NCBI GenBank assembly: GCA_039811685.1
Contig: JBDHZC010000005.1
Coordinates: forward strand, 72,057 to 136,056
Direction: 5' to 3'
DNA from: Armatimonadota bacterium
GTDB taxonomy: Bacteria > Armatimonadota > UBA5829 > DSUL01
Length of the DNA stretch: 64,000 nucleotides
Position numbers and translations under genes: made by a program. The notes under the pieces were generated by a model that worked only from the letters and a program-made list of their open reading frames with translations, had not been told where the DNA came from and ran no database searches. Of this stretch, positions 1 through 31,421 are shown in pieces (the stretch's first letter is position 1; the number at the start of each line of letters is the position of its first letter).

Positions 1-111
1 GATGCCTTGAGTGGGTTCTTTACGCCGACGGGTCAGTCCGGCTACTACCTCTACAAGAAGCAGTCGCCCAGCGACGTGCGGCTGGAAGGAAGAGAAGTTC
101 CGTACCCGTAG
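1..111 (+). CDS. Small peptide, 5'-truncated at window edge (…DALSGFFTPTGQSGYYLYKKQSPSDVRLEGREVPYP*); paralog of the peptide at 4820..4939
   Basis: Reading frame from position 1 to TAG at 109-111. It is 85-90% identical at nt and aa level to the 39-aa ORF at 4820..4939, which lies just downstream of an E element. The flanks are also duplicated. Confidence 0.35.
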   Translation, partial: DALSGFFTPTGQSGYYLYKKQSPSDVRLEGREVPYP

Positions 112-135
112 CGCCTATCGGCGAAAGAGGATGAA

Positions 136-1128
136 ATGTTTCGACAGTTGATCTGGTTTGTCACAGCAGCGCTCCCTTTGCTCGCACTTGTGCTCGCCGC
201 GGCCGCGTGCGGTGCAAGCGATATTCCGGTCGCTGTGCCCGCCCCCGGAGAGCCGCCTGTTCTGTTCGCTGCCGAGTCAGCAGGTGTGCTCTACACGGCA
301 ACTCTGGAGGCGGACAAGCGCGTTGCGGTCATCGCCGCCCTGCCGCTTGATCGAGTTGCGGAAAAACGGACTTACACAGTGCCGGTACCCGCTCTCGAAT
401 ACGAAAGTTTCCAGCGGCTCCGCTGGAGACTGGGCAGCGGATACGCGTGGCTGCTGCCAACGGTGCTGACGAATGGTGGCTTACGCCGCTACCCGATGTA
501 TCGCATTCCGCGCAGCGAACTCGACAAACTCCTCCACGGCAGTAACGAAGCCAGCGGAAGCGGCTTGAAAGACATGTGGTTTCCGCCGGGCTTTGCGCCA
601 CTCACACGCGCGGACGATGAATCCGGGGTGAAAGGGCAGCCGATCTACGGAGACTTCTACCCTATCTCTACATCAGCTATCCGGCAGTTCATTTTGCAGG
701 GCAGCGTACTGAGCGTCTGGGACTACATCGGAAACCCAGACGCCAAGCGGCCTGGGGGAAGTGACAGAGACCTCACTCCCGTGGCTGACCGAGAGCGGTA
801 CTTCAACTGGGTCCGCGTGGTGAAGCTGAAGGCGCCTTTTACGGAGTCCTTCCACGCGTTTCCTCAGAAGGGCGGGTTCCTGCTGGTTACGGACTCCGGC
901 GCGCTCTACTCCATCACGGGCATCAGCACCGGTACTCCAGCGATACGCAGGGTGGATCTGGGCGACGAGCAGATCAGGGTTATCGTGCAGACGGAGGGTG
1001 GATCGGCCATTGCGGCGACGCAGACGAAGCGCCTCGATCTGTCCTCGGCGCCGAAGCTGTCGCCGCTTTCGCATCCGCACAGCTCACCGACGGCTGCGGC
1101 CCTTGAGCTGGCCAAAGCGCTGAAGTAG
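136..1128 (+). CDS. Secreted protein/putative lipoprotein, P-family paralog (330 aa)
   Basis: ATG with upstream GAGGA. N-terminal hydrophobic signal with LAAAAC lipobox-like motif. Near-identical copy at 4964..5956. C-terminus …LELAKALK is shared with 3400..4482 and 7300..8325. Confidence 0.6.
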   Translation: MFRQLIWFVTAALPLLALVLAAAACGASDIPVAVPAPGEPPVLFAAESAGVLYTATLEADKRVAVIAALPLDRVAEKRTYTVPVPALEYESFQRLRWRLGSGYAWLLPTVLTNGGLRRYPMYRIPRSELDKLLHGSNEASGSGLKDMWFPPGFAPLTRADDESGVKGQPIYGDFYPISTSAIRQFILQGSVLSVWDYIGNPDAKRPGGSDRDLTPVADRERYFNWVRVVKLKAPFTESFHAFPQKGGFLLVTDSGALYSITGISTGTPAIRRVDLGDEQIRVIVQTEGGSAIAATQTKRLDLSSAPKLSPLSHPHSSPTAAALELAKALK

Positions 1129-1181
1129 TAGCGGGGTCGGCCGCGCTCAGTGAAGGAAGTCAGCCATCGCGGAGTCAAAGA

Positions 1182-1358
1182 ATGGAGAAACAAGTAGCTC
1201 AGGCGCAGCAAACCGTTCTGACTCTTGAAGCTGCGACAGCTACCTGCGCCGATTGGAAGCAGTGGTGGGCCGAGAACCAGAGCCAGTTTCAGTCCGGCAC
1301 CAGGAGCAAAGCTGAAGCTGCGGCCTTCGAACCAGCCGAACCCGCAACGGAGCAGTAG
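1182..1358 (+). CDS. W-module small protein (58 aa, MEKQVAQAQQTVLTLEAATATCADWKQWWAENQSQF…)
   Basis: ATG 1182 preceded by a conserved GAAGGAAG-containing leader. Homologous to the ORF at 8379..8555 and to the C-terminal ~50 aa of the HEAT protein at 6209..7165. Ends at the TAG that begins E copy 1. Confidence 0.45.
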   Translation: MEKQVAQAQQTVLTLEAATATCADWKQWWAENQSQFQSGTRSKAEAAAFEPAEPATEQ

Positions 1359-1461
1359 CGGAGGAACAGCGCTTCATCCGCGCAGGTGTCCTCACCTGCG
1401 CATAGAATTGGCGAATCTTTCACCCACTGGCTCCAGGTGGGGACATCTGGAGAGATGTAAA
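1356..1461 (+). repeat. E element copy 1 (~105 nt structured repeat: 5' arm agcggaggaacagcgcttcatcc, hairpin 1, spacer, hairpin 2, GGAGAG-ATG-TAA)
   Basis: One of six near-identical copies. Hairpin 1 is gcgcaggtg-tcct-cacctgcgc at 1380..1401. Hairpin 2 is ctccag-N10-ctggag at 1431..1452. ATG 1455-1457 is followed immediately by TAA. Confidence 0.8.
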
Positions 1462-1553
1462 TGGGGGCCCTTCTGCCAGACTGGGACGATGATGATCCCA
1501 ATCTGAACGGGGCGGAGAACGAGGACCTGGACCAGGTGACACGCGTCGAATGA
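1461..1553 (+). CDS. Acidic small peptide (30 aa, MGALLPDWDDDDPNLNGAENEDLDQVTRVE)
   Basis: Its ATG directly abuts the TAA of the E minimal uORF (ATGTAAATG). Its stop TGA 1551-1553 overlaps ATG 1550-1552 (ATGA). Coding status is uncertain. Confidence 0.3.
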   Translation: MGALLPDWDDDDPNLNGAENEDLDQVTRVE

Positions 1554-1561
1554 GGAGACCA

Positions 1562-3034
1562 ATGGTTTACAATGGAGTTATGGTCGTCGCCCGGCAGAAA
1601 GGCCCTGCCGGCCACTATGCAGCTGTCCTCGCGATAGCCGCATTCGTGTCCGCAGTGTGTGCTGCACAAGCGGCGTGCGAACTGCCAACTCACGGTTGGG
1701 AGTTCACAGTCGCAGCGGAGCACACGCCGGCTGTAGCGATCAGTAGAGACGGCTCGCGCATCGCCGTTTCCGACTGGGCGGCCATCTATCTACTTGACCG
1801 GCAGGGCAAGGTGCTGTGGACCGCGAAGGCGCCACCGAAGAGTGGCTTCGGAGTGACCGCCATCTCTGACACCGGCCATCGTGTGCTGTGCTGGAAGATT
1901 CGGCGCCTCCCAAGTGTGGACAACGAGGATATCGACTACAACGCGGTGCTCTTCAACGGCGCCAACGGGCAGGTGCTGACCGAGATCGAGCTGGACGGGG
2001 GCCGAGTGCCGACGGCGCTGTCTGGCGATGGACGGTATATTCTGGCGGGCTATCCGCCGGACGGCCTGGGCCTGGAAATGGCAGCACAGCCTGATCCCGC
2101 CAACTACCTCATGCTCTTAGATGACACCGGCAAGACCGTCTGGCGCTCAGACAAGCTTGCCCAAAAGCCCGTTGTCGGAGCGGCTTACGGCTTTTTATCC
2201 CACACCGGTTCCTATGCGCTGCTCGGCGCAAAAGACCGCCTGAACCTTGTGACCATCGGCGGCTATCACCTTTTCGACATTGCACTGACGTCAGACCCTG
2301 CCGTTTCCGCCGACGCTGACTTGATCATGATGGGCGCCACACCCGTGTTGTCCACAGACGTTCAGAAGTATGAGACCGCATGGCCTGTTGTCGCGCCACA
2401 GGGTGAGCAAGAGCCGCAGACATGGGGCCATGAGTCCTTTGGCTTCAAGACGTACACTGCAGCCGCGGCGCTCGCCTTGGTCCGCGTCGGGGATGTGGCC
2501 GAGGAGTCGCCTCCCCCGAACCGGCGGCATCCCTTTGCGGAGCTGGTGTGGGCGCATGGCGAGATCTGGGCGGGAAACCGGGAACGAGTGCTGGATGCGC
2601 CGAAGCTTCCGCCCATTCCCGCCGGTAATCCTGGACGGCGCGGGGTTGCCTACGGATCGGCTGGGCTGCTGGCAATTGTCGACCACACGCTGTTGGCGGC
2701 AGAGCTTGGGCAGGAGCACGCGGTGAAGTTGCTACGCCTGCCAGGGCTGGGGATTGTGAAAAGGGTCGGCGTGTCCAGCAACGCTTCCCGCGCCTACACT
2801 CTCGTCGCCGTCCCCGCTGGGTCCGATCTAGTGGGACGCGGCCCCAGCACGGGTTCGGCGGCTTCCGCTCTTGTCTGCACCGTCTGGGACAGGTCTGCCA
2901 AACCTGTTGCAACAATGCCTCTTTCAGAGCAGGAGAGGCCCTTCGCGATAGCCTTCTCCCACGCAGGCGATCTCCTGATCCTAGCGTGGAAGGGTAAGGT
3001 GCAGGCGTTCGAGATCGGAGGCGTCGCCAGGTAA
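1562..3034 (+). CDS. Secreted beta-propeller-like (PQQ/WD40-like repeat) protein
   Basis: 494-aa ORF; ATG 1562 preceded by GAGGAG at good spacing (alternative ATG 1550). Hydrophobic N-terminus and repeated …DG..IAVSD/…LLD.QGKVLW-like strands. It occupies the same position as the P-family genes between E copies 1 and 2. Confidence 0.5.
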   Translation: MVYNGVMVVARQKGPAGHYAAVLAIAAFVSAVCAAQAACELPTHGWEFTVAAEHTPAVAISRDGSRIAVSDWAAIYLLDRQGKVLWTAKAPPKSGFGVTAISDTGHRVLCWKIRRLPSVDNEDIDYNAVLFNGANGQVLTEIELDGGRVPTALSGDGRYILAGYPPDGLGLEMAAQPDPANYLMLLDDTGKTVWRSDKLAQKPVVGAAYGFLSHTGSYALLGAKDRLNLVTIGGYHLFDIALTSDPAVSADADLIMMGATPVLSTDVQKYETAWPVVAPQGEQEPQTWGHESFGFKTYTAAAALALVRVGDVAEESPPPNRRHPFAELVWAHGEIWAGNRERVLDAPKLPPIPAGNPGRRGVAYGSAGLLAIVDHTLLAAELGQEHAVKLLRLPGLGIVKRVGVSSNASRAYTLVAVPAGSDLVGRGPSTGSAASALVCTVWDRSAKPVATMPLSEQERPFAIAFSHAGDLLILAWKGKVQAFEIGGVAR

Positions 3035-3237
3035 CCCGGGTCGAGAACCCAATGCAGTTGACTTACTACGCCGACTGGAACTCAGAGACCGTAGCGATGG
3101 CCGGACTGCTTGCCGGAGGGGACGGCCAGTGCGGCTCCGCCTCAGGCGCAGCACGACGGCCTGGAGGGCCCGGCCTAGCAGCAGATGGTCGCCTGTCTCA
3201 CGGATATGAAGACCGCGCTGGGGTGTCCCCAGGCTAT

Positions 3238-3328
3238 GCTTCATCCGCGCAGGTGTCCTCACCTGCGCATAGAATTGGCGAGTCCTTCGCCCACTGGCTC
3301 CAGATGGGGACACCTGGAGAGATGTAAA
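3238..3328 (+). repeat. E element copy 2 (5' arm degenerate)
   Basis: gcttcatccgcgcaggtgtcctcacctgcgcatagaattggcgagtccttcgcccactggctccagatggggacacctggagagatgtaaa, with ATG 3322-3324 and TAA 3325-3327. The upstream 200 nt look like a decayed W-module. Confidence 0.75.
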
Positions 3329-3399
3329 GCTCGACCTGATATCGAGTGACGTAGCCGGCAGGGAAGCCTCGTATCCATAGCGTTAGAAGGAGTCACTAG

Positions 3400-4482
3400 A
3401 TGAAGATCACCGCTGTTGCCAAAGCTCTTCTTGTCTGTTGGTTGGCGGTCGACGCCGTCAGCCCTGCCGTCGCCGAGAGCTATCTATTCAGTGAAGAGAC
3501 GAAGCACCCCCTGATCGTCCAGCGCCCGCTGACAGGCATACTGGTTGATGAGACTATGTACACTCTCTCGATCGCGCCAGAGTCGGGCTATGCGCCTGTA
3601 CTGACGGAGACGCCGATGACCGCGCTTGCCGCGCCTGTCAGCTACGCTCTCACCGCAGTAGCCGACGCCAGACGCCCGGCCTTTCCTGTTCACTGGTCGC
3701 TGCGTGGAGGTTTTGTTTGGACGTTGACTGAGTCCGATACGCCGCTGAGTGGCATAGTGCCGTTTTACTTCAGTCTTCAGCGGACTGCGCTGACTGGCCT
3801 GGAGCCGTGTGCCGCAGCCACCACGCATGTGGTCAAGCCCGGTACTGTTGCCGATGTGTGGCACGCTCATCTGGCTAAGTGGGAGCGTGTCGCTTTCACT
3901 GAGCCCGAGACGCTGAACGACGCGACGCGGGCCGCCCGGCCTCCCGAGGTACCCTATCCTCTTGCCGCTATCGTGGTGACGGGACCGGTGACCGTCCAGC
4001 TTTTCCAGTTGACCGCCCCACATATGATGGGATGGGAGTACCGTGGGCCGGAGAAGCCTCGGCGGTGGAAAGCCGCGTTTGGGCCGGGGATGGCGCCGAT
4101 CTCTCCCGAGAGTCAGCGGGGCGTGCCTCTCAAGGAGCGTACTCACTCCGGCGACTGGTGGCGCATAGGGATGTTCGACGTTCCCTTCAGCGAGGCCTAG
4201 GAAGTGGCCAAGGTCGAAGGTACCTACTACGCCGTGACACAGAGCGGAGAGGTTTTCTCTCTGGGCGACCTTACCGGGAAAGTAAAGAAGATCGACATAG
4301 GAGGCAGACGTGTGACGGCGATTCTGACGCTGGAGGAGAGCGGAAAGGTGTATCTTTGTTCGCATGAGGACTACGCGCCGCTGTCGGATTCGCCTGGATT
4401 CAAATCCATTCCTGGAGGACACCCAGACGTCACCAGATCGGCAACGCAGTGCCTGCTGGACCTGGCGAAGGCGTTGAACTAG
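3400..4482 (+). pseudogene. P-family paralog interrupted by a single in-frame TAG (3400..4200 plus 4204..4482 in the same frame)
   Basis: Signal peptide at N-terminus. The last ~90 aa (…GGRRVTAILTLEESGKVYLCSHEDYAPLSDSPGFKSIPGGHPDVTRSATQCLLDLAKALN) are near-identical to the C-terminus of 7300..8325. TAG at 4198-4200 is in frame and flanked by homologous sequence on both sides. Confidence 0.5.
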
Positions 4483-4538
4483 CGCAGGGACTGCCATCCG
4501 CACGCAGTGAAGGAAGGCAGCCATCGCGGAGTCAAAGA

Positions 4539-4716
4539 ATCGAGAAATGAGCGGCTCAGGCGCAGTAAAGCGATCTGAATCTGAAGGCCGCGGAAGCTGC
4601 CAGGTCCGATTGGGAGCAGTGGCGGGCAGAGGACCAGAGCCAGTTTCAGTCCGGCACCAAGATCAAAGCTGAGGCTGGCGCACCCTCGATGTCGCCCGGC
4701 CCCGCGGCTCAGCCGT
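4539..4716 (+). pseudogene. W-module small ORF, degenerate copy (start ATG to ATC, internal TAA)
   Basis: Aligns to 1182..1358 and 8379..8555. Start codon mutated (aatCgagaa), stop within 'cagtaaagc', and a diverged middle. The 3' end …WEQWRAEDQSQFQSGTKIKAEAGAPSMSPGPAAQP* is retained. Confidence 0.5.
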
Positions 4717-4818
4717 AGCGGAGGAACAGCGCTTCATCCGTGCAGATGAGCGCATCTGCGCATAGAATTGGCGAATCTTTCACCCACTGGCTCCAGGTGG
4801 GGACACTTGGAGAGATGT
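4716..4818 (+). repeat. E element copy 3
   Basis: Hairpin 1 gtgcagatg-agcg-catctgcgc is a compensatory variant. Hairpin 2 is ctccag…cttggag. ATG 4815-4817 is followed by TGA, which overlaps the ATG of the next ORF (ATGTGATG). Confidence 0.8.
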
Positions 4819-4819
4819 G

Positions 4820-4939
4820 ATGCAAGACGATGCGTTGAGCGGGTTCTTTAGGCCGGCGGGTCAGTCCGGCTACTACCTCTACAAGAAGCAGTCGCCCAGC
4901 GATGTGCGGCTGCAAGATACTGAAGTTCCGTACCCGTAG
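4820..4939 (+). CDS. Small peptide (39 aa, MQDDALSGFFRPAGQSGYYLYKKQSPSDVRLQDTEVPYP)
   Basis: ATG overlaps the stop of the E minimal uORF. Conserved in the duplicate at window start (1..111), with mostly conservative changes. Confidence 0.4.
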   Translation: MQDDALSGFFRPAGQSGYYLYKKQSPSDVRLQDTEVPYP

Positions 4940-4963
4940 CGCCTATCGGCGAAAGAGGATGAA

Positions 4964-5956
4964 ATGTTTCGACAGTTGATCTGGTTTGTCACAGCAGCGC
5001 TCCCTTTGCTCGCACTTGTGCTCGCCGCGGCCGCGTGCGGTGCAAGCGATATTCCGGTCGCTGTGCCCGCCCCCGGAGAGCCGCCTGTTCTGTTCGCTGC
5101 CGAGTCAGCAGGTGTGCTCTACACGGCAACTCTGGAGGCGGACAAGCGCGTTGCGGTCATCGCCGCCCTGCCGCTTGATCGAGTTGCGGAAAAACGGACT
5201 TACACAGTGCCGGTACCCGCTCTCGAATACGAAAGTTTCCAGCGGCTCCGCTGGAGACTGGGCAGCGGATACGCGTGGCTGCTGCCAACGGTGCTGACGA
5301 ATGGTGGCTTACGCCGCTACCCGATGTATCGCATTCCGCGCAGCGAACTCGACAAACTCCTCCACGGCAGTAACGAAGCCAGCGGAAGCGGCTTGAAAGA
5401 CATGTGGTTTCCGCCGGGCTTTGCGCCACTCACACGCGCGGACGATGAATCCGGGGTGAAAGGGCAGCCGATCTACGGAGACTTCTACCCTATCTCTACA
5501 TCAGCTATCCGGCAGTTCATTTTGCAGGGCAGCGTACTGAGCGTCTGGGACTACCGCGGAAACCCAGACGCCAAGCGGCCTGCGGAAAGTGACAGAGACC
5601 TCACTCCCGTGGCTGACCGAGAGCATTACTTCGACTGGGTCCGCGTGGTGAAGCTGGAGGCGCCTTTCACGGAGTCCTTCCACGCGTTTCCTCAGAAGGG
5701 CGGGTTCCTGCTGGTTACGGACTCCGGCGCGCTCTACTCCGTCGCGGGCATCAGCACCGGCACTCCAGCGATACGCAGGGTGGATCTGGGCGACGAGCAG
5801 ATCAGAGTTATCGTGCAGACGGAGGGTGGATCGGCCATTGCGGCGACGCAGACGAAGCGCCTCGAGCTGTCCTCGGCGCCGAAGCTGTCGCCGCTTTCGC
5901 ATCCGCACAGCTCACCGACGGCTGCGGCCCTCGATCTGGCCAAAGCGCTGAAGTAG
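4964..5956 (+). CDS. Secreted protein/putative lipoprotein, P-family paralog (330 aa); recent duplicate of 136..1128
   Basis: About 97% aa identity to 136..1128. The upstream 140 nt are also duplicated. Followed directly by TAGTAG and E copy 4; the W-module ORF is absent here. Confidence 0.6.
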   Translation: MFRQLIWFVTAALPLLALVLAAAACGASDIPVAVPAPGEPPVLFAAESAGVLYTATLEADKRVAVIAALPLDRVAEKRTYTVPVPALEYESFQRLRWRLGSGYAWLLPTVLTNGGLRRYPMYRIPRSELDKLLHGSNEASGSGLKDMWFPPGFAPLTRADDESGVKGQPIYGDFYPISTSAIRQFILQGSVLSVWDYRGNPDAKRPAESDRDLTPVADREHYFDWVRVVKLEAPFTESFHAFPQKGGFLLVTDSGALYSVAGISTGTPAIRRVDLGDEQIRVIVQTEGGSAIAATQTKRLELSSAPKLSPLSHPHSSPTAAALDLAKALK

Positions 5957-6062
5957 TAGCGGGGGAACAGCGCTTCATCCGCGCAGATGAGCTCATCTGC
6001 GCAAAGCATTGGCGAGTCCTTCACCCACTGGCTCCAGGTGGGGACACCTGGAGAGATGTAAA
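5957..6062 (+). repeat. E element copy 4
   Basis: Hairpin 1 is gcgcagatg-agct-catctgcgc. ATG 6056-6058 and TAA 6059-6061. Confidence 0.8.
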
Positions 6063-6071
6063 GCGACGTTC

Positions 6072-6212
6072 GTGGCGGCAATCAACCAGGAGAGGATCGC
6101 GGGTGATAAGGATTACGAGGAGCAGGCCTACGGCGCGGAGGCCGTGTGCGAAATGGACCTGCTGGAGGAGACGTGCGCGTACGTCACGCCGCCATGTGAG
6201 GCGTGTCCATGA
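6072..6212 (+). CDS. Acidic 4-Cys small peptide A (…DKDYEEQAYGAEAVCEMDLLEETCAYVTPPCEACP); start codon uncertain (GTG 6072?)
   Basis: Open frame from the E element to TGA 6210-6212, which overlaps ATG 6209 of the HEAT gene (ATGA). Homologous to peptide B at 8660..8782 with pattern C-x8-C-x6/7-C-x2-C. Confidence 0.4.
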   Translation: MAAINQERIAGDKDYEEQAYGAEAVCEMDLLEETCAYVTPPCEACP

Positions 6213-7165
6213 CCATGGTATGCAGTCCTAGAACGGAGGTCGTTTTGAAACTCTTTATTGTGCTACTGCTTGCTGCTGCTCTTTGTGTTACGGCAATATC
6301 CGAGGGTGCGTCGGCCGAGCGCACGTGTGCCGCCACCAGGTATTACCGCTCCACGGTTTCTGAGTTGGTCGGGCTGCTTTCGAGTGGGCTGTCTATCGAC
6401 CGGTTCGACGCGGCTCTCGAACTCGGGCGGCGAGGCGATGTGTCAGTGATCCCTGCAATGAAGGCTGCGCTTGGCGATCCGGAGCGTTTCGTGCGGATGC
6501 GGATAGCTGCTGCGCTGCTGGATCTCGGCGATCGAAGCGGCGTGGAGGTACTTCACGAAGTTGTTACGTCGGGTGAGCCCTACTGGAGTCTGGCAGCGGC
6601 GGAGGTGCTTGCCCATCACGGTGACACCTTTGGCCGTGATCTCATCAGGAAGGCTCACTCTTCGAGCAGTTGGGTCGCTCGCTCCTCAGCCTTAAGGGCC
6701 TCGGCCGACCTTCCGGAGGGGCCGCCCTACGACGCCGTGGCTGCCGGACTGGAGGACTCGCAGCAGATTGTCCGCTTGACCGCCCTGAGGGCTGCTCAAA
6801 TGTGCCATGACCCCCGGGTGAAGGATCTGGTCCGCAAGGCGTTGTCTTCTTCCGATACGCTTCTGAGGGCGCGCGCGGCCATCATAATTGCGGAGGAGGG
6901 GCAGCCCGCAGACATTCCGGCTCTGATAGCGCTGTTGACAGCTCCGGATGGGGTTACCCGTTCTGCCGTTCTCAGAGCACTGCAGTCGCTGACGGGGCGT
7001 GCTTCTCCGTCGAAAACCGTTCTGACTCTTAAGGCTGCGACAGCTATCCGCGCTGAGTGGGAGCAGTGGTGGGCCGAGAACCAGAGCCAGTTCCCGCCTG
7101 GTACCAAGATCAAAGCTGAGGCTGGCGCACCCTCGGTGTCGCCCGGACCCGCGGCTCAGCCGTAG
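6209..7165 (+). CDS. Secreted HEAT-repeat (PBS-lyase/E-Z type) protein with C-terminal W-module
   Basis: Signal peptide (LKLFIVLLLAAALCV). Tandem repeats of the …LG(D)xxxxxxLxxxLxDxxxxVRxxAAxAL… type. The last ~50 aa (KTVLTLKAATAIRAEWEQWWAENQSQFPPGTKIKAEAGAPSVSPGPAAQP) match the free-standing W-module ORFs. GTG 6203 is an alternative start. Confidence 0.6.
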   Translation: MTMVCSPRTEVVLKLFIVLLLAAALCVTAISEGASAERTCAATRYYRSTVSELVGLLSSGLSIDRFDAALELGRRGDVSVIPAMKAALGDPERFVRMRIAAALLDLGDRSGVEVLHEVVTSGEPYWSLAAAEVLAHHGDTFGRDLIRKAHSSSSWVARSSALRASADLPEGPPYDAVAAGLEDSQQIVRLTALRAAQMCHDPRVKDLVRKALSSSDTLLRARAAIIIAEEGQPADIPALIALLTAPDGVTRSAVLRALQSLTGRASPSKTVLTLKAATAIRAEWEQWWAENQSQFPPGTKIKAEAGAPSVSPGPAAQP

Positions 7166-7267
7166 CGGAGGAACAGCGCTTCATCCGTGCAGAGGAGCGC
7201 ATCTGCGCATGGACTTGGCGAATCTTTCGCCCACTGGCTCCAGATGGGGACACCTGGAGAGATGTAA
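7163..7267 (+). repeat. E element copy 5
   Basis: Starts at the TAG of the HEAT gene. Hairpin 1 gtgcagagg-agcg-catctgcgc has one mismatch. ATG 7262-7264 and TAA 7265-7267. Confidence 0.8.
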
Positions 7268-7299
7268 GTCGCGAATACTGAGCGCAACTGAGATGCACA

Positions 7300-8325
7300 A
7301 TGAGAAGCAAAGGACACAGTAAAATGAGGGTACGGAAACGGCCTCTTCTTCTTCTCTTCGGAGTCCTACTTGTCACCACTCCACCAGCTGTCGGGCAGCC
7401 GTCTCCTGGTGTTCGCCTACGTCCTGGTCAAAGCCAACTGGTGCAGACTCCGCTGACGGCCTCTTCACGTGCGGGCGTTCTTTACACAGTGATCATTGAC
7501 AAAGGGCGTGCCTTGCTGCGGCAGACGCCTCTTGATACTTCATCGCCCGTTCGCTTCGCAAGTCTGGAGTCCTCCAGCCGTTTGACCGGTATCGGCCCGA
7601 TGTTTCCAGCGCATTGGGGACTTGCAGACGGCTTCCTTTGGTCGCTGGTTCTTGAAGAAGGAGACGCATACTGGGCCAGCCCACATCTAAGCCGCTTCGC
7701 GCTGGAGGACATGCGTCTCGTGGACCCGGACAACGCCCTTCCGCCTCGAGGCGCGCACCGCACAAGGCGCACAGAAGTCCCCCCGTATCCTCTCCTGGAT
7801 GCCATCGCGGAAGGGTCAAACCGTGACTTACTGGTCTTCCCCGCGCTTCAGCCCCTGTCGCGCAAATCCGTCCGCCTGTTCGTGCTGCAGCCGCCCGTGC
7901 TGACGGTATGGGTGAACGAAGACCCCGCGCTTTTCGCACCACGAACGTCCGGACGCAGCGTCGAAGGACGCGTGAAGGAAAAGGGCAGGATTGAGAACTG
8001 GTTGAAGGTTGCGTCTATCAGTGTTCCTTTCGCCGAGCCTTTCGAAGTTGTTGGGTGCGGTTCCGTCTGCTACTTCATCACAGGAAGCGGGGACCTCTAT
8101 GCAGATAAAGATCTGAAGGCAAGTCCGCAGAAGATCGACACAGGAGGCAGGCGCGTGACGGCGATTCTGACGCTGGAGGAGAGCGGAAAGGTGTATCTTT
8201 GTTCGCACGAGGACTACGCGCCGCTGTCGGATTCGCCTGGATTCAAATCCATTCCTGGAGGTCACCCAGGCGTCACCAGGTCGGCAACGCAGTGCCTGCT
8301 GGACCTGGCCAAAGCGCTGAAGTAG
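7300..8325 (+). CDS. Secreted protein, P-family paralog (341 aa)
   Basis: Basic N-terminus followed by a hydrophobic signal (RPLLLLFGVLLVTTPPAVG). Middle region recognisably homologous to 3400..4200. C-terminal 90 aa near-identical to 4204..4482, ending LLDLAKALK. Alternative start at 7324. Confidence 0.6.
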   Translation: MRSKGHSKMRVRKRPLLLLFGVLLVTTPPAVGQPSPGVRLRPGQSQLVQTPLTASSRAGVLYTVIIDKGRALLRQTPLDTSSPVRFASLESSSRLTGIGPMFPAHWGLADGFLWSLVLEEGDAYWASPHLSRFALEDMRLVDPDNALPPRGAHRTRRTEVPPYPLLDAIAEGSNRDLLVFPALQPLSRKSVRLFVLQPPVLTVWVNEDPALFAPRTSGRSVEGRVKEKGRIENWLKVASISVPFAEPFEVVGCGSVCYFITGSGDLYADKDLKASPQKIDTGGRRVTAILTLEESGKVYLCSHEDYAPLSDSPGFKSIPGGHPGVTRSATQCLLDLAKALK

Positions 8326-8378
8326 TAGCGGGGTCGGCCGCGCTCAGTGAAGGAAGTCAGCCATCGCGGAGTCAAAGC

Positions 8379-8555
8379 ATGGAGAAACGAGCGGCTCAGG
8401 CGCAGCAAACCGTTCTGACTCTTAAAGCTGCGACAGCTATCCGCTCCGATTGGGAGCAGTGGTGGGCCGAGAACCAGAGCCAGTTCCCGCCTGGCGCCAA
8501 GATCAAAGCTGAGGCCGCACCCCCGGCGTCGCCCGGACCCGCGGCTCAGCCGTAG
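8379..8555 (+). CDS. W-module small protein (58 aa, MEKRAAQAQQTVLTLKAATAIRSDWEQWWAENQSQFPPGAKIKAEAAPPASPGPAAQP)
   Basis: Same conserved leader (cagtgaaggaagtcagccatcgcggagtcaaag) and ATG context as 1182..1358. Ends at the TAG that starts E copy 6. Confidence 0.45.
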   Translation: MEKRAAQAQQTVLTLKAATAIRSDWEQWWAENQSQFPPGAKIKAEAAPPASPGPAAQP

Positions 8556-8659
8556 CGGTGGAACAGCGCTTCACCCGTGCAGAGGAGCGCATCTGCGCAT
8601 TGAATTGGCGCATCTTTCGCCCACTGGCTCCAGGTGGGGACATCTGGAGAGATGTAAAC
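8553..8659 (+). repeat. E element copy 6
   Basis: Hairpin 1 is gtgcagagg-agcg-catctgcgc. ATG 8652-8654 and TAA 8655-8657. Carries an internal TGA in the frame that is open in the other copies. Confidence 0.8.
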
Positions 8660-8782
8660 AAACAACGTGATGAAGAAGAAGCGTACTCCGAACAGGAGAT
8701 GTGCGAGAGGCTTACGTTGGACGACTGGTGTACATTTGGTATCCACGGGCCCTGCACGGCGTGCGATGATCTCAATGACTAG
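8660..8782 (+). CDS. Acidic 4-Cys small peptide B (…RDEEEAYSEQEMCERLTLDDWCTFGIHGPCTACDDLND); start codon unresolved
   Basis: Homolog of peptide A with the same Cys spacing and the conserved EE.AY…C.E motif. Ends at TAG 8780-8782, 20 nt upstream of the second HEAT gene. The only in-frame ATG is at 8699; the homology extends upstream of it. Confidence 0.35.
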   Translation, partial: KQRDEEEAYSEQEMCERLTLDDWCTFGIHGPCTACDDLND

Positions 8783-8801
8783 CAAGATGATGGAGGAAAG
8801 A

Positions 8802-9716
8802 ATGACGAAGATGGTAGCGCTGGTTCTAATCTGCGGGTGGTTCGGCTGGGGTGGTGTCTGTGCTGCGGGGCCGGCTACCCCTGTCACCGCCACAAATGGC
8901 TCAGCGACTCGTTCACCGGATTGTGACGAGGCGAGTGTCCCTGAATTGATTGCCATCCTTCGTGAGCGTGGAACCTTTGCTGTCCGTGCAGCACAGCTCC
9001 TTGCGGATCGCCACGCGACGTCTGCAATTCCGGATCTCGCGCTGTTGTTGACGGATCCGAAAATCTCTCTGCGGATAAATGCGGCGCGTGCAATGGCGCT
9101 CCTGGGAGACCGGAGCGGGTTACCAGTGCTGCGGGCGGCGCTGACAGAGGGTGACGATTTCCACGCCTCTATCGCGGCCGCTTTTCTGGCGCAGCTTGGC
9201 GACGACAGTGGGCGCGCGGTTTTGGAGAGGGAACTCAGTAGTCAAAACTGGATCGACCGGAGGCAGGCCCTGTACGCATTGGCGCTTCTTCCGGATGGTC
9301 TGTCTGATGTGGCTGTTGCAGCGGCTCTAGAGGACGAAAGGCCGGAGGTACAAAGAAGCGCGTTTCGTGTGGCCTGGAAAAATGCGTCTGATAGGGTGCG
9401 GGAGGTGTTGATTAAAAAGACACAGTCCCCGGATCCGCTTACCCGCTGGCGGGCGACTGAGGCCCTGTTTATGAGTAACCCGCACCGAAACGCAGAGATT
9501 GCTATTGGCATGATTACGGATCCGGACCGCCTCGTACAGGGACAAACATCCATGATGCTGGCGCATTTCTCCCGTGTGGCTGTGCCTCGGGTGAGCGGGT
9601 GGATGAGGAGTGCCGAGCGGGCAAGAGATCTCAAGCAGGCGTATCTGGAGTGGCTGGCGGTTAACAGGGACGTGGCGTTCCCGCCAACCGAGCCGGCGCC
9701 GCCTGCACCGCAATAG
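8802..9716 (+). CDS. Secreted HEAT-repeat (PBS-lyase type) protein with a diverged native W-like C-terminus
   Basis: GGAGG then ATG 8802. Signal peptide (MTKMVALVLICGWFGWGGVCAAG). HEAT repeats (…AARAMALLGDRSGLPVLRAAL…). C-terminal QAYLEWLAVNRDVAFPP resembles AIRAEWEQWWAENQSQFPP. An in-frame upstream ATG at 8667 would add a non-signal extension. Confidence 0.6.
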   Translation: MTKMVALVLICGWFGWGGVCAAGPATPVTATNGSATRSPDCDEASVPELIAILRERGTFAVRAAQLLADRHATSAIPDLALLLTDPKISLRINAARAMALLGDRSGLPVLRAALTEGDDFHASIAAAFLAQLGDDSGRAVLERELSSQNWIDRRQALYALALLPDGLSDVAVAAALEDERPEVQRSAFRVAWKNASDRVREVLIKKTQSPDPLTRWRATEALFMSNPHRNAEIAIGMITDPDRLVQGQTSMMLAHFSRVAVPRVSGWMRSAERARDLKQAYLEWLAVNRDVAFPPTEPAPPAPQ

Positions 9717-9828: not shown

Positions 9829-10719
9829 CTACACCCGCTTGCGGCGAACCACCCCTGCCAGTGATACCAGGCCGGCTCCCAGCGCGAGCAGGGAACCCGG
9901 CTCAGGCACCAGCGTCAGCGAGAAGTCATCAAAGTAGCCAGTCTGGCTTCCGAACTTTGAGTTCACTTCTATAACATTGTAGCCGTAGTTGAGCACGGAA
10001 TTATGAGTCAGCGTCGGATTCACCATGTCGTCAATGTAGAACCAGACGTCGTTTGTGCCGTCGCCGAGCGCAGGCCCAACCACGATGCGCGCCTGATGCC
10101 AACCAACGCTTCTGCTGGTGCTGGTGTTGAACCATCCGTTAGGGCCGCCGTAGCCGTCGCTGGACCCGACAACGCGAGCCTGATACTTGCTGGTATCCCC
10201 GGTGCTTTGCGCTCCCAGTGAAAGCCGCTGGATCTTGCTGGCGCCGGCGTTCAGGCTGCCCGATCCAGGATAGTCAGTGCCGGAAGGCGCCGTGTTGTAA
10301 TAGCCAAGAGCGACGTAGTCCTTGAAGTTGCCGTCACCCGCGCCACCGACGTCGTAGAACCACCAGTCGAGCGTCAGATTCCCGGTAAAGACGTTGCCGC
10401 CGTTGAAGCGATAGGCGATATTCAACCAGTTCTGGTCAATGTCTGCCCCGCCTACGAAGGCTCCGCGAAGCATGTGGTCACCACTGTGGGGCGTGACGCC
10501 GCTGTCGGTCGAAACTACCTGTCCGTTTGGCGGGTTGGGGCCGAACCAGGGGTTGCCGGACCCGTTTGGCGCCGAGTTCGCGCCACCGGGGGCATTCTTG
10601 TCGAGCGCGCCGATATTGGCGCCCTCAAATCCGTCTGTAAAGACGGGAGCCGCCTGCGCCGTGAAAGCTGTGGCCACAACCAAAAGTCCCACCGCGCAGA
10701 GGAGCATTCCTCTTTTCAT
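9829..10719 (-). CDS. PEP-CTERM sorting-domain secreted protein
   Basis: Start MKRGMLLCAVGLLVVATAFTAQA (signal peptide). C-terminal VPEPGSLLALGAGLVSLAGVVRRKRV is a PEP-CTERM motif plus TM helix plus basic tail. Confidence 0.65.
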   Translation of the reverse strand: MKRGMLLCAVGLLVVATAFTAQAAPVFTDGFEGANIGALDKNAPGGANSAPNGSGNPWFGPNPPNGQVVSTDSGVTPHSGDHMLRGAFVGGADIDQNWLNIAYRFNGGNVFTGNLTLDWWFYDVGGAGDGNFKDYVALGYYNTAPSGTDYPGSGSLNAGASKIQRLSLGAQSTGDTSKYQARVVGSSDGYGGPNGWFNTSTSRSVGWHQARIVVGPALGDGTNDVWFYIDDMVNPTLTHNSVLNYGYNVIEVNSKFGSQTGYFDDFSLTLVPEPGSLLALGAGLVSLAGVVRRKRV

Positions 10720-11129
10720 ACTTTCTCCTTCTGTCTGCCTGCAGTCAGCCGATCTTACGCCGGCTTGCACTCTAGCAGTACACAAACGTACTTAATTTAG
10801 AATATCACTGCGTACTTATAGAGTCAACTGGTAATTTGGTGTCAAAATCTCATCCTTTTTCCAGGTGAAGCGCAGAAAGCGCAGGATGCCTTTACTGTTG
10901 CGCGACCGGACCGGTGTCTGACGTATTTGCATTCGGATTGCGCTAAGGCCACCGCCCGTGGTATACTCCTGCGTCTGTGAAAGTCGTCACAGGCTTTGCA
11001 CTTACAGAGACGATGGCCACTTCTTGAGGGCAGAGCCAGCGCAACAGAGTTCCACAGACACATAGTTGAGGGTGGAATCAGAACCACGGCCGACTGTGGC
11101 AACTCCGCCTGCTGCTCGTAAATGCTCGC

Positions 11130-11762: not shown

Positions 11763-13277
11763 ATGGCGCGCGTCAGGGATATACGCACTGTCTCGGTGCG
11801 TACAAAAATCCTCGTGCCGGTTCTCTTCATTGTTGTCGCTGTCTTTGCCGCTATTCTCTACGGCGCCGCTCTGGTACTGGAAGCGCAGCGGCACGAATAC
11901 TCCCGAAGAATTGGTAGAAGAGTCTCCAGCGCTGTTGCTGGCGGGTTGCACTCCGCTCTGATGACTGGACGCAAAACCGAAGCACAGGAAGCCATCCGGG
12001 TTATGCTCTCCGAAGCGGACCTCCCTCCCAGTCAAATCGCTATTCGCAAGCTGGACGGCGCTTACTGGATTCGCGGCGGCGACAATACAATCCCGCCGCA
12101 TTCGTTTGCGCTGAAACCGTCTCTAAAGGAGAACTCCAGCCGAGAGTTCAGCGTTGGCGCTGCCCGTTTCATCAATACCACATCAGTTCTCCCGAATGAG
12201 CCTGAGTGTCAAAGCTGTCACAGCCCCGCCACCCGAGTGCTCGGCTATCTCGAAGTGGACCTTCCCGTGGTCTGGGTGCGCCAGCGCCACCAGGCGACTC
12301 TCACGGCTATCGCCGTTATTGCGGGGCTGACGCTTCTGCTGCTGGCTGTTGCAATCGTTTTGTCCGTCCAGATAGCGGTTGTTACGCCGATCAAGGGTCT
12401 GGCAAGCGCTATGACGGTGGTTAAGGGCGGGCATCGCGATGTTCAGGTGGAAGCCGGACCGGAAGACGAGATCGGCATGCTGAGCAGACGGTTCAACGAG
12501 ATGGTGGATGAAGTGGCTGAGGCGGAACACTCTCTTGTCGAAAAAGAGCACCAGCTTGCGCGGGCGGAGAAGCTGGCTGGGATTGGGCTGATGGCTGCGG
12601 GAATCGCCCACGAGATAAATAACCCGCTGACCGCTGTGTCGATGGCCGCGGAGAGTATCAATCTCCCCAACGCCACACAAGAGCAGCGGCAAAGGCTGAG
12701 CGCCTACATTCTGGAGGGTACGCGGCGAATCCAGGATATTGTGGCTGAGCTTCTGACGCTGGATCAGAAGCGAGCTTTGAATGTGACTGAGCAGGACGTT
12801 GCGGAGATCGTCCACGCCGCGCTGGCTGGCAGACAGATTCCCGGTAACATCACGGTGCACGCCAGTTTGGCTCCGGATCTTCCAAAAGTTCACGTGGACT
12901 GGGAACGAATTGTGAGGGCAATCGGCAACCTTGTGAAAAACGCTCTCCAGGCGATGCCTGACGGGGGAGAATTGACTTTGTCTGCAGAAGCTGGAAAAGG
13001 CGAGGTACTGATTGACATCAAGGATACAGGTGGAGGTATAGCCCCCGAACATCTCCACCGCATTTTTGATCCTTTTTTCAGCACGCGGGAGGTCGGAGAA
13101 GGCTTTGGACTGGGACTGGCTTTTGCGCACGCTGTGGTGAAGCAGCACGGGGGGGACATAACAGTCAGCAGCGAACCTGGCCGTGGAACGGCATTTACAA
13201 TCTCGTTGCCCGTTGAGCCGGGAGCGAACCCAGAGGAACCTGGTGATTCCAGGGACGTGTCAGAGATGGAGGAATAG
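11763..13277 (+). CDS. Sensor histidine kinase with periplasmic CxxCH heme-binding motif
   Basis: TM segment, periplasmic domain containing CQSCH, second TM, H-box (IAHEINNPLTAV), and HATPase_c G-boxes (DTGGGI…GLGLAF). Confidence 0.7.
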   Translation: MARVRDIRTVSVRTKILVPVLFIVVAVFAAILYGAALVLEAQRHEYSRRIGRRVSSAVAGGLHSALMTGRKTEAQEAIRVMLSEADLPPSQIAIRKLDGAYWIRGGDNTIPPHSFALKPSLKENSSREFSVGAARFINTTSVLPNEPECQSCHSPATRVLGYLEVDLPVVWVRQRHQATLTAIAVIAGLTLLLLAVAIVLSVQIAVVTPIKGLASAMTVVKGGHRDVQVEAGPEDEIGMLSRRFNEMVDEVAEAEHSLVEKEHQLARAEKLAGIGLMAAGIAHEINNPLTAVSMAAESINLPNATQEQRQRLSAYILEGTRRIQDIVAELLTLDQKRALNVTEQDVAEIVHAALAGRQIPGNITVHASLAPDLPKVHVDWERIVRAIGNLVKNALQAMPDGGELTLSAEAGKGEVLIDIKDTGGGIAPEHLHRIFDPFFSTREVGEGFGLGLAFAHAVVKQHGGDITVSSEPGRGTAFTISLPVEPGANPEEPGDSRDVSEMEE

Positions 13278-13284
13278 CAGGGAT

Positions 13285-13905
13285 ATGCCTAAGCGAGTCT
13301 GGACAGCAGAGCGTGTTGTCGAGGAAATACAGCAACTCGAGAAATCGGGCGTCGATCTGAGGCACGGTTCTGTCCAGGACGAGCACAAGAGGCTGGTAAG
13401 CGCGGCGATCCGTTACTTTGGAAGCTGGAGAGCGGCGGTTGAAGCCTCAGGGCTTGACTATGAAAAGCTGCGGCAGTCCTCTGAAGAGCAGCGCCTTCAG
13501 AAGATTGGAAAATGGTCGGAGGAGAGGATTCTTGCGGAAATCAAGGATCTGAAGGACAAAGGAGACGATCTGCGCGCTGTGATGGTCAAGAACAAGTACC
13601 CCGCGCTGTTCTCAGCGGCGGTCAGCCCCAGGTACTTTGGCAACTGGCGAAAAGCTCTGACAGCGGCGGGAGTGGACTACGATACAGTGCTGTCCCGGTC
13701 CCCGCGCGGGCGTCCAAAAAGGACCGACGTCTGGCACGCAGGGCTGATTCTGCAGAAAATCCGTGAGATGCATGCGAAGGGGCAGAGCCTGGAGTCCGAG
13801 GCGATATCTTCGCACTATCCCCGCCTTCTCCGGCTTGCGACAATGCGCTTTGGAAGCTGGCACTCTGCGGTGGATGAGGCCCTCTCAAAAGACAACTCCG
13901 CATAG
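13285..13905 (+). CDS. Hypothetical protein with three tandem ~45-aa repeats (R[YM]FGSW..A…G[LV]DY)
   Basis: ATG 13285 just after the kinase stop. Repeats RYFGSWRAAVEASGLDYEKL / RYFGNWRKALTAAGVDYDTV / MRFGSWHSAVDEAL resemble homing-endonuclease-associated repeats; this resemblance is from memory. Confidence 0.4.
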   Translation: MPKRVWTAERVVEEIQQLEKSGVDLRHGSVQDEHKRLVSAAIRYFGSWRAAVEASGLDYEKLRQSSEEQRLQKIGKWSEERILAEIKDLKDKGDDLRAVMVKNKYPALFSAAVSPRYFGNWRKALTAAGVDYDTVLSRSPRGRPKRTDVWHAGLILQKIREMHAKGQSLESEAISSHYPRLLRLATMRFGSWHSAVDEALSKDNSA

Positions 13906-13994: not shown

Positions 13995-14774
13995 GTGAGC
14001 AGGGCGCTTTATATCTTCGACCTTGACGGCGTCATCTACCGCGGAGACACTCCTCAACCCCACGCAGCCGACTGTATCCGGCGATTGACGGCTGCCGGAC
14101 ACGCCATCTATTATCTGACCAACAACGCATCGCGAACGCGCGAGAGCTTCGCGCAGAAGTTGTCCGCAATGGATATTCCCACCGAACCTCGGCAGGTGAT
14201 GAACAGCTCGTACGGTACGGTCTTGTGGCTGCGAGAGTTTGGACAGGTGGCAAGTACTGTGATGGTTGTGGGGGAGCAAGGCTGTTTTGATGAGTTGAAC
14301 GCCGGAGGAATGCGGACTGTGACGCCAGGTGACGGGCATCAGCCAGACTACGTGGTAGTTGGCATTGACCGGAGCTTCACCTACCAGAAGCTCTGGCAGG
14401 CTCAGACGGCGATTCTGAACGGCGCTGTTTTCATCGCCACGAACCGGGACTCGACTTTCCCGTATGAAAGCGGCATCGCTCCGGGCGCTGGCTCGATTGT
14501 TGCGGCAGTCGCGGAGGCAGTGGGACGCCAACCGTTTACAATAGGCAAACCAGAAACATTTCTGCTGGATCAGGTTATCAAGGATTCGGGAATCGCGCGG
14601 GAGCGCGCTATCATGGTGGGAGACCGGCTGGATACAGACATTGCGGCTGGCAACAGGGCCGGGGTAAAGACTGTACTGGCGCTCGGCGGAGTGGCGAGCC
14701 GTGAAGATGCGGCTATCGCTGAAGAGGAAATGCGCCCGCAAGTCATCATTGACAATCTCTCGGAGCTTGAGTAG
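13995..14774 (+). CDS. HAD-superfamily hydrolase, subfamily IIA (NagD-like sugar-phosphatase)
   Basis: Motif I (FDLDGVIY), TNN, and C-terminal GDRLDTDI motifs. Confidence 0.7.
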   Translation: MSRALYIFDLDGVIYRGDTPQPHAADCIRRLTAAGHAIYYLTNNASRTRESFAQKLSAMDIPTEPRQVMNSSYGTVLWLREFGQVASTVMVVGEQGCFDELNAGGMRTVTPGDGHQPDYVVVGIDRSFTYQKLWQAQTAILNGAVFIATNRDSTFPYESGIAPGAGSIVAAVAEAVGRQPFTIGKPETFLLDQVIKDSGIARERAIMVGDRLDTDIAAGNRAGVKTVLALGGVASREDAAIAEEEMRPQVIIDNLSELE

Positions 14775-15461
14775 GTGTCAATTCTGGCAATCGGTGCGGC
14801 AGATTCATCTGGCTTGTCCGGGCTTTGGATGTATGCTCACAGCGCAGAGTGTGACTGCCGGATATTCCCTGTGACCGCGTGCGTGATCGCCAGGAGCAGA
14901 GATGGCCGCGTCAAAGCAGTATCCGCAACCCCGCCAACGATTATCGCGCGCCAGATTGATGCCGCTACTGAGATAGAGCATCCACAGGCCTGCATCGTCG
15001 GGATGCTGGCGCGGCATCAGGCGGTGCACAGGGTGGCGGAACGGATTCAGAGGCGAGAGATCTGCAACATTGTCCTGGCGCCGGTGTTAGGGCGCGAAGA
15101 CGGGCGCGATCTGATGACAGCGCAGGGGATCAAGCAGACCAGAAGGCAGCTTGTCCCGCTGGCTGATATCATCGTTGGTGATGCGCAGACACTTCAAAGC
15201 CTTGCCAACAGTGAACGGGGCGTTGCTGCCGCGGCACAGGCACTGAGAGATAACGGTGCGAAAAGCGTCATTGCGCTCTGGCAGCAGGCGGACAAGTTTG
15301 TCTGCCGCGTGTTTGCCGGGCAAACGGCGCAGTTCTCTCTGGGTCCGGGAAGCCAGATGGACCAGACGCTCATCGACAGGCTCGCTGTTGCTTCGGCGCT
15401 GAGTCTTACGGAGGGCAAGAGCCTCACGGAGCGCCTGAGTCAGTGGAGCGCCGGGTGTTAG
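14775..15461 (+). CDS. ThiD-like (hydroxymethylpyrimidine/pyridoxal kinase family) protein, short
   Basis: N-terminal ILAIGAADSSGLSGL resembles the ThiD glycine-rich motif. Shorter than canonical ThiD. Confidence 0.4.
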   Translation: MSILAIGAADSSGLSGLWMYAHSAECDCRIFPVTACVIARSRDGRVKAVSATPPTIIARQIDAATEIEHPQACIVGMLARHQAVHRVAERIQRREICNIVLAPVLGREDGRDLMTAQGIKQTRRQLVPLADIIVGDAQTLQSLANSERGVAAAAQALRDNGAKSVIALWQQADKFVCRVFAGQTAQFSLGPGSQMDQTLIDRLAVASALSLTEGKSLTERLSQWSAGC

Positions 15462-15561
15462 TCAACTCAGGCTCAGCCGCTGCAGCAGGAAGTGGAATCT
15501 GCGTGTGCGGGTAGAGTACGGGGACAAAGAGCTATACGGATTGTTCGGTGATTTTTAGCAG

Positions 15562-16296: not shown

Positions 16297-16342
16297 TGGC
16301 GTATGCAATCAAAGCGATGCACGCAGAAAGGCTTTCTGGTCT

Positions 16343-17083: not shown

Positions 17084-17091
17084 GAGGCGAC

Positions 17092-18111: not shown

Positions 18112-18126
18112 CAGGCGTCACGGGCT

Positions 18127-22281: not shown

Positions 22282-22283
22282 GG

Positions 22284-24331: not shown

Positions 24332-24334
24332 GAT

Positions 24335-26609: not shown

Positions 26610-27214
26610 GCAGGCGCGGTGATTGATTTTAGAACGGGCTACCGGCGTCAACATCGGTAGGATGATCTATCAGGCGCTGGACGGCGGCTGTTCGCGTGGA
26701 CGGGCTGGAAGCGCCTATCCCGCACGCGCTGGCGCTGCGGATTATACAGAACGCCGGGAAAGCAACCAGCGCGACAAGAAACAAAACGATTATCAGCTTC
26801 ATGGGAATCTTCCTCTTTCGTTTGCAGTAGCTTTGTCTATCTTAGGACCCGGCTACTGGAAAAAACAGAGCGCGCAGATTCCCCGCATTGGTACGGGTCT
26901 TTGCCTGTAGGGGGCAAAAAATCGGGCTTTTTGGGGCACTGGCAGGCAAAAAAATAGCCCGCGGAAGTAGCTTCAGCGGGCTCCAGAGAAAATATCTGAC
27001 AGAAGGAGAAAAAGATATTTGGTTTCCATCATTAATAAGTGCAAGAACCGTGCCAAAAGCCAGATAGCGCTGAATTTTGTCCAGATTTTGCGTCAACAGG
27101 AGATGGGCAGTCTCTCCTGTGTCTCCTCTGCTGATGCCTGGAGCAGTGCTCCGGAGTGCGTCTGCGTCTGATATTCTGCTTGCGGATGACTGTCTCTGAA
27201 AGGATGCTGGGCCA

Positions 27215-27964: not shown

Positions 27965-27995
27965 ACGGGACGAACGGGGCCTCAGAAGCGTTCTA

Positions 27996-28814: not shown

Positions 28815-28880
28815 GCAGGTGGGACGGATACAGATAGAAAGATCCAAAAGTTTGCGCGCGGCCAGTGAGTCTGAAGACTG

Positions 28881-31409: not shown

Positions 31410-31421
31410 GAGGCCCTCTGC

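Follow-up and report, generated by a model that had tools for sequence, protein, structure and literature searches.

The first 9,716 nt of a 64,000-nt stretch of DNA from an Armatimonadota bacterium (assembly GCA_039811685.1, contig JBDHZC010000005.1, positions 72,057 to 136,056 of the forward strand; the whole stretch is referred to as the window) hold a same-strand block of genes for exported proteins, interspersed with copies of a short structured repeat that we call E. The block comprises seven open reading frames (ORFs), all on the + strand: four paralogs of a protein family termed P (P1a, P1b, P3 and P4), two HEAT-repeat proteins and a 494-aa orphan. An initial annotation, made from the sequence alone, had proposed an undescribed envelope or surface-variation system at this locus. 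This proposal exceeds the evidence, though the observation behind it is real and lies well beyond chance, and the locus is most aptly described as a paralog array that undergoes recombination and carries a structured intergenic repeat private to it. The array is laid out as follows:

136-1128, + strand: P1a, a 330-aa exported protein modelled as a small beta-propeller, with a lipobox-like AAAC
1182-1358, + strand: W1, an intact 58-aa ORF, copy of the HEAT1 C-terminus, called as a gene in a metagenome-assembled genome (MAG) at NCBI
1351-1461, + strand: E1, repeat, with its core (GCTTCATCC...GAGATGTAA) at about 1372-1461
1550-3034, + strand: 494-aa orphan, exported and beta-rich
3218-3328, + strand: E2, repeat, in which only the 91-nt core (3238-3328) is the common part; 94.5% identical to E1
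3400-4482, + strand: P3, P-family gene with an in-frame TAG at 4198-4200
4490-4715, + strand: W3, a degenerate W-module with ATC for ATG and an in-frame TGA
4711-4821, + strand: E3, repeat
4829-5964, + strand: duplicate P1 unit, a 135-nt leader plus P1b (gene 4964-5956), followed by E4 without a W-module
5952-6062, + strand: E4, repeat
6203-7165, + strand: HEAT1, an exported HEAT-repeat protein; the W-modules derive from its last ~50 codons
7158-7268, + strand: E5, repeat
7300-8325, + strand: P4, a 341-aa P-family member
8379-8555, + strand: W6, an intact 58-aa ORF, copy of the HEAT1 C-terminus
8548-8658, + strand: E6, repeat
8667-9716, + strand: HEAT2, an exported HEAT-repeat protein and final gene of the array, with no E 3' of the gene

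Export of all sizeable gene products, as originally claimed, is supported by their N-termini. A 12-aa hydrophobic stretch is present there in seven of seven array proteins, with Kyte-Doolittle values of 2.3-3.2 against 0.3-1.7 in seven cytoplasmic control proteins from the same window, and signal peptides are thus predicted from N-terminal hydrophobicity. An Armatimonadetes MAG at NCBI (GCA_020846715.1) has the locus almost unchanged (99.95% identity over 13 kb) at the end of its contig JADLDK010000010.1, which terminates within the array. In an independent short assembly, window position 1 lies about 10 nt 3' of another E copy, the seventh. The array therefore does not begin at position 1, as had been assumed, and extends into upstream sequence that is unassembled in the public MAG. 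Since the MAG contig stops within the locus and the window opens about 10 nt past an E copy, the array lies at an assembly break. Seven single-nucleotide polymorphisms (SNPs) separate the NCBI MAG from the window, all of them in 3033-6079 and none in the following 8 kb.

P1a and P1b, described at the outset as two near-identical lipoproteins, are 97% identical in protein sequence and both carry the lipobox-like AAAC. P3 and P4 had been assigned to the same family, and they indeed share 25-32% identity with P1 as well as the C-terminus LDLAKALK common to the family. Between P1a and P1b, the ratio of non-synonymous to synonymous substitution rates (dN/dS) is 0.89 on 16 differences and thus gives no signal of diversifying selection. 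Structure prediction returned a confident model of the P fold, a toroid of four-stranded blades whose top structural matches are propellers, and on this model the P proteins are beta-propellers. No family in Pfam, NCBIfam or PADLOC matches them. An exhaustive search of 1.8 billion representative proteins with a P-family hidden Markov model yielded 53 proteins at E-values <=1e-3. These relatives are mostly 300-400 aa long, those inspected have signal-peptide-like N-termini, and the few named ones all belong to Planctomycetota (e.g. Thermoguttaceae). The in-frame TAG of P3 aligns with a conserved aromatic position of the family. As it is identical in three other assemblies (the NCBI MAG and two independent Logan assemblies), the nonsense codon is genuine and does not stem from a sequencing error; P3 is a pseudogene or a readthrough gene.

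The two HEAT-repeat proteins were likewise recognized correctly: each matches Pfam HEAT_2 (PF13646) with 73 bits against a cutoff of 27.7 (E-value ~2e-20). They are 33% identical to each other, and a search of 5.8 billion proteins gave no specific relative of HEAT1. Downstream of P1a, P3 and P4, the HEAT1 3' end recurs as the W-module, which comprises the last ~50 HEAT1 codons and a ~75-nt leader of unknown origin. W1 and W6 have a GGAG 7 nt 5' of the ATG, read MEK...DW.QWWAENQSQF..., lack a signal peptide and may be small proteins or relics, and W3 (ORF part ~4536-4715) is decayed, as is the preceding P3. For the W-modules, dN/dS is 0.2-0.5 on very few sites (0.53 for W1 versus W6). The 494-aa protein had been labelled a beta-propeller. 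Support for such a fold is weak: the PQQ_2 match (E-value 0.022) is below the cutoff, and the single-sequence structure model, with a mean confidence score (pLDDT) of 41, is unusable. The beta-propellers of the array are the P proteins. Among 5.8 billion proteins, the orphan finds only itself. Its stop codon at 3032-3034 is polymorphic: the window has TAA, whereas the NCBI MAG has TCA and a reading frame longer by nine codons.

The repeat E is a discrete, quasi-palindromic module. Its six copies in the window are ~92 nt long, 80-94% identical, all on the + strand and all within the array, with start-to-start distances of 1206-1867 nt. A 30-nt core, searched with up to three mismatches, gave six matches versus 0.00 expected, all of them on the + strand and in the locus. 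An E covariance model detected no further copy in the 64 kb, i.e. none in the other 54 kb. The core spans GCTTCATCC to GAGATGTAA, and in five of the six copies it is preceded by the extension TAGCGGRGGAACAGC, in which the TAG terminates the ORF before it. E begins 13 nt past the stop codon in five of six cases, and its orientation is always that of the genes. E2 consists of the core alone, with sharp borders on both sides and flanks without similarity. The view that all genes are bounded by E and W modules on a single strand is correct as to the strand and the reality of the modules, but HEAT2 has no downstream E.

Two 9-bp hairpins, CAGGTG-N4-CACCTG, are predicted in every E copy, and some copies add a closing stem and a third hairpin. 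The hairpins of E1 and E2 are near reverse complements of each other, which makes the element quasi-symmetric. As RNA, the E hairpins reach z-scores of -1.8 to -3.7. An ordinary terminator is not what E represents: a terminator scan detected no intrinsic terminator at any copy, hairpin 2 is trailed by AGAGATGTAAA and no U-tract, and the neighbouring PEP-CTERM gene, unlike E, has a canonical terminator. E is also non-coding. In five of six copies, one frame stays open between the TAG upstream and a TAA or TGA, yet the substitutions are mostly non-synonymous. Moreover, this frame is interrupted by a TGA in E6, a double TAG closes P1b and a consistent start codon is lacking, and we rejected a translated extension. 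A sigma-70 scan of E gave no promoter, manual checks for sigma-54 and extracytoplasmic function (ECF) sigma factor patterns were negative, and a TAGAAT box is not conserved. No Rfam 15 family reached its gathering score in the 64 kb. The sole overlap with E at E-values <=10, SNORA43 at E2 (3246-3339; 19.5 bits versus a gathering score of 80, E-value 3.1), was judged a chance match, and ARAGORN found no tRNA or tmRNA.

These features recall the REP/BIME, ERIC and MIRU repeats. Those are palindromic non-coding units of 40-130 nt, located just past stop codons or between co-transcribed genes and oriented with transcription. They have no U-tract, presumably serve as stem-loops at mRNA 3' ends and as recombination substrates, and are dispersed genome-wide in tens to hundreds of copies. 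E is like them in being a short palindrome after stop codons, in gene orientation and without a U-tract. It is unlike them in that seven copies lie at one array and none in the adjacent 54 kb, and in that no RAYT or other transposase is seen in the window. E might nevertheless be a generic non-autonomous mobile or REP-like repeat, of the miniature inverted-repeat transposable element (MITE) or REPIN type, which accumulated here by chance and without a specific link to the genes. MITEs are characterized by terminal inverted repeats, a target-site duplication and copies dispersed in either orientation. The length of ~92 nt would suit such an element, as would the ~30-nt arms of E1 and E2, which are imperfect inverted repeats (roughly 75%; CTTCATC..CAGGTGTCCTCACCTG versus its reverse complement at the 3' end). 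The covariance model scores the reverse strand, too, the borders are sharp, and the contigs of all assemblies break at E. However, random insertion would produce the single orientation of seven out of seven copies with a probability of only ~1/64, and six copies placed at random in the window would all fall within the 9.7 kb of the array, leaving the following 54 kb empty, with a probability of ~1e-5. A target-site duplication is missing at E2, and no relative of E was found in genome, metagenome, viral, plasmid and phage collections. We consider this explanation unlikely.

The search for E relatives gave one curious result. With 27 specified bases, the E core has no match in genome or metagenome contigs, and a 19-base core has seven single matches there. 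Five of these seven fall into one conserved coding stretch (...DYFAHWLQMG), presumably of GTP-PEPCK, in Chloroflexota MAGs and metagenome contigs (L011 7953-7977; L014 1811-1835; L015 9717-9741; L016 339-363; L017 4173-4197), with 25-39 nt of similarity. The likeness to E cores (e.g. window 7225-7262) includes a 25-nt exact match and extends to ~36/39 nt. At database scale, we estimate E-values of 0.06-0.3 for these matches and judged them to be chance, though an odd coincidence. Viral contigs, plasmids and phages contained no E relatives.

The sharp borders and the spacing of E also invite a reading as an E-bounded cassette array. Here, E would be the site of a dedicated site-specific recombinase encoded upstream, which excises and reinserts gene-plus-E units as in integrons or rAID-1 arrays, and the cargo might be envelope-protective, immunity-like exported proteins. 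The genes are co-oriented orphans with one structured repeat per gene at a spacing of 1.2-1.9 kb, and the array runs on upstream into unassembled sequence. Integrons and clusters of attC sites lacking integron-integrases (CALIN) similarly hold co-oriented, mostly orphan genes. Integron sites are 57-141-nt imperfect palindromes that resemble each other within a chromosome, and duplicated cassettes may occupy separate positions, as the P1 unit does. E also conforms to the spacing by which CALIN are delimited (at least two sites <4 kb apart, on one strand, after co-oriented ORFs). Of all explanations, this one accounts best for the borders of E2 and for the near-identical P1 unit at two non-adjacent sites.

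DNA folding of E speaks both for and against such a recombination site. An attC site forms one imperfect hairpin with extrahelical bases, and its two ends pair. Strands of E2 and E4 reach z-scores of -4.1 to -5.2, and in single-stranded form both copies adopt a closed structure whose ends pair (GCTTCATC / GATGtaAAGC, 2-nt bulge) around three internal hairpins; a four-way junction can form. This fold is not seen in E5 and E6, their bottom strands are weaker (-2.4 and -1.4), and the closing stem is not conserved in E1, E3, E5 and E6. The best-conserved feature of attC sites is a pair of complementary triplets (PMC4889954): R'', at the 5' end, carries AAC, and R', at the 3' end, carries GTT. E does not have them: GTT is absent from all six cores, and the sole AAC lies in the 5' extension, GGAACAGC, which is missing from E2. 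The array further differs from integrons in lacking a conserved R''/R' closing stem and a site after its last gene, HEAT2, and its units of 1.2-1.9 kb with long leaders exceed typical cassettes. In the 54 kb downstream of the array, we found no recombinase (and thus no IntI), invertase, reverse transcriptase or transposase.

The comparison with rAID-1 arrays of Bacteroidales is similarly divided. These arrays have repetitive intergenic sequences, a 5' XerD-like recombinase >44% identical to that of B. fragilis, a GC content below that of the host genome and homology to type VI secretion system immunity genes (Ross et al. 2019; bioRxiv 10.1101/471110). The E array shares the co-oriented genes, the repetitive intergenic sequences and the gene fragments. 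However, its GC content of 0.61 is similar to, and not lower than, the 0.59 of the remainder of the window, and the array proteins gave generic HEAT matches only and no immunity (Imm-type) family in Pfam, NCBIfam and PADLOC. With nothing in Rfam either, the earlier statement that no catalogued defence, secretion or mobile system matches this locus stands. A related array, described below, lacks E altogether. Taken together, we regard a dedicated recombinase acting at E as rather unlikely.

The array arose through, and continues to be reshaped by, segmental duplication, deletion at short homologies, and gene conversion or non-allelic recombination, the footprints of which are found throughout. 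Window positions 1-1136 match 4829-5964 at 97.7% DNA identity over 1136 nt, and these two positions are non-adjacent. The P-tail/W/E block of P3 (4286-4818) matches that of P4 (8129-8655) at 88% DNA identity, and over the last 197 coding nt P3 and P4 are 94% identical in DNA despite their divergence at family level otherwise. The tail of HEAT1 together with E has been copied three times, at 82-93% identity. At the P1b-E4 junction, TAGTAGCGGGG joined to GAACAGC fits deletion of a W-module between GTAGCGG repeats. Finally, E1-E4 show all four combinations of hairpin-1 type with AATCT or AGTCC, and such reticulate variants point to exchange between E copies.

This turnover could be read as programmed surface variation, in which the P repertoire is diversified by directed gene conversion with P3 as donor and the 3' tail plus E as anchor, comparable to Neisseria pilin. 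Surface-protein families that evolve by gene conversion include Mycoplasma vlp/vsa and Neisseria pilE/pilS, the latter having a conserved 3' repeat. The P array resembles them in its clustered paralogs, conserved C-termini, variable bodies, pseudogene, conserved 3' non-coding sequence and mosaic tracts. In favour of this reading are the tail of the pseudogene P3, which is nearly that of P4, and N- and C-terminal P fragments in the related array. An independent assembly also contains a P1 that is a mosaic of P1a and P1b variants, and all seven SNPs between assemblies fall within 3033-6079. However, the mosaic P1 contig could be a chimera produced by de Bruijn assembly, and the visible paralogs do not carry the SNP variants as a template would, so that conversion from these paralogs is not supported as their source. 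Unlike pilE/pilS and vlp/vsa, the P paralogs are ancient (25-32% identity), only four in number and each a complete, startable gene with its own signal peptide, and no split into expression site and silent copies is seen. Neither a recombination-initiating element nor an enzyme was identified in the sequence at hand, and the P1a/P1b comparison lacks a diversifying-selection signal. The initial annotation had suggested programmed recombination of the repertoire. Recombination among the modules is indeed visible, but no sign of a programme was seen: there is no recombinase in the 54 kb downstream and no silent-cassette architecture, and we consider directed variation very improbable.

Related loci provide an independent view of the array. 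The closest relatives of the P genes lie on an ENA contig, L019, which is identical to an NCBI MAG contig, L018; they share 41-52% identity with P4, the window protein nearest to this second array. Besides one full-length P gene, L019 1-5700 contains two N-terminal P fragments and a C-terminal one, a HEAT gene for an exported protein and a frameshifted HExxH metalloprotease-like gene (2287-3734), and its C-terminal P halves are 82% identical in DNA. A hairpin repeat of its own, 91 nt long and unrelated to E, flanks a P fragment at 4617-4707 and 5510-5599, and the covariance model found no E in this array. Clustering of P with HEAT genes and recombinational turnover are therefore common to two lineages and E is private to one, so that E is not a conserved part of any system. 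Among six contigs carrying distant P relatives, five have a solitary P gene without a HEAT neighbour, located among ordinary genes in four contigs and beside a cadherin-repeat protein and a resolvase in the fifth (L008). On the sixth contig, a HEAT_2 gene lies 3.7 kb off. As to the locus in relatives, which the initial annotation had named as its check, a P-plus-HEAT array without E recurs in one relative, and P is mostly solitary elsewhere.

On two contigs, the P-family gene follows a very large gene at a distance of 14-26 nt, which encodes a 1080-aa protein of unknown function in L006 (2397-6765) and a 1012-aa protein with cadherin-like repeats in L008 (5610-9819). This hints at a partner relationship between P-family proteins and very large proteins at these loci.

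We interpret the locus as a lineage-specific chromosomal paralog array, shaped by duplication and recombination at E, with E serving as a 3' RNA stem-loop module, and give this combined reading about an even chance of being correct. The fixed distance of 13 nt past stop codons, the orientation and the stable hairpins without a U-tract make a transcribed stem-loop the best fit for E. Transcribed as a 3' or intercistronic stem-loop, E may set the 3' ends or the stability of the upstream message in a manner resembling REP/BIME, and coordinated post-transcriptional control by E is plausible. At the DNA level, E would offer ~100 bp of portable homology for the duplication, movement and conversion of E-bounded units, and RecA-dependent crossovers would naturally fall in its near-identical copies, with duplication, excision and reinsertion, or conversion of the units as the outcome. 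On this reading, the modular look of the array is explained without a dedicated enzyme, and programmed variation machinery is unnecessary to explain the locus. The P propellers and their HEAT partners probably act together in the cell envelope.

Several observations weigh against this interpretation. E2, with its 91-nt core, sharp borders and no flank homology, fits the insertion of a discrete unit and is poorly explained by duplication or conversion. Excision and reinsertion of an E-bounded unit is a simpler route to the non-adjacent P1 copies than tandem duplication. E lies 30-180 nt upstream of every gene and may have a 5' role. The structural support for E is thin, with one compensated pair and a mismatch in two copies of each hairpin. 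A bolder idea, which we consider decidedly unlikely, is that the array could be the visible end of a new gene-cassette platform of Armatimonadota, in which genes for exported envelope proteins would be captured, duplicated and reshuffled at E by a recombinase encoded upstream. E would then be a four-way-junction-forming site unrelated to attC, and the cargo might consist of protective or immunity-like propellers with their HEAT partners.

Beyond the array, the window continues with a convergent gene on the - strand (9829-10785) whose product carries the PEP-CTERM motif predicted earlier (Pfam match with an E-value of 2e-4, slightly above the cutoff; also TIGR02595). The genes for Rex and a histidine kinase come next, then a polysaccharide-biosynthesis cluster and housekeeping genes including SerRS, PepA, RuvA and PurK, an ordinary chromosomal setting. 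The cluster at ~14700-32200 encodes several GT1, GT2 and GT4 glycosyltransferases, acetyltransferases, methyltransferases, an epimerase and cytidylyltransferases; together with the PEP-CTERM gene, it fits an exopolysaccharide/exosortase context, and no exosortase was found among the window ORFs scanned. Between the histidine kinase and a HAD hydrolase lies a gene for a 240-aa protein (13183-13905) with a homing-endonuclease-associated HNH_repeat (E-value 2e-15). Four large ORFs of 460, 275, 650 and 582 aa at 39421-43932 and 53088-54836 match no Pfam family at E-values <=1e-5.

The P family adds a group of unnamed exported beta-propellers, with about 50 members and no Pfam model; at least two Armatimonadota-like lineages show a link between this group and HEAT-repeat proteins. 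Should E prove to be the site of a dedicated recombinase, the array would represent an integron-like platform of a new kind, in a phylum about which little is known. If, on the other hand, the array is a lineage-specific set of paralogs recombining at E, it would be a clear case in which a short private repeat and homologous recombination give rise to cassette-like modularity without a dedicated enzyme.

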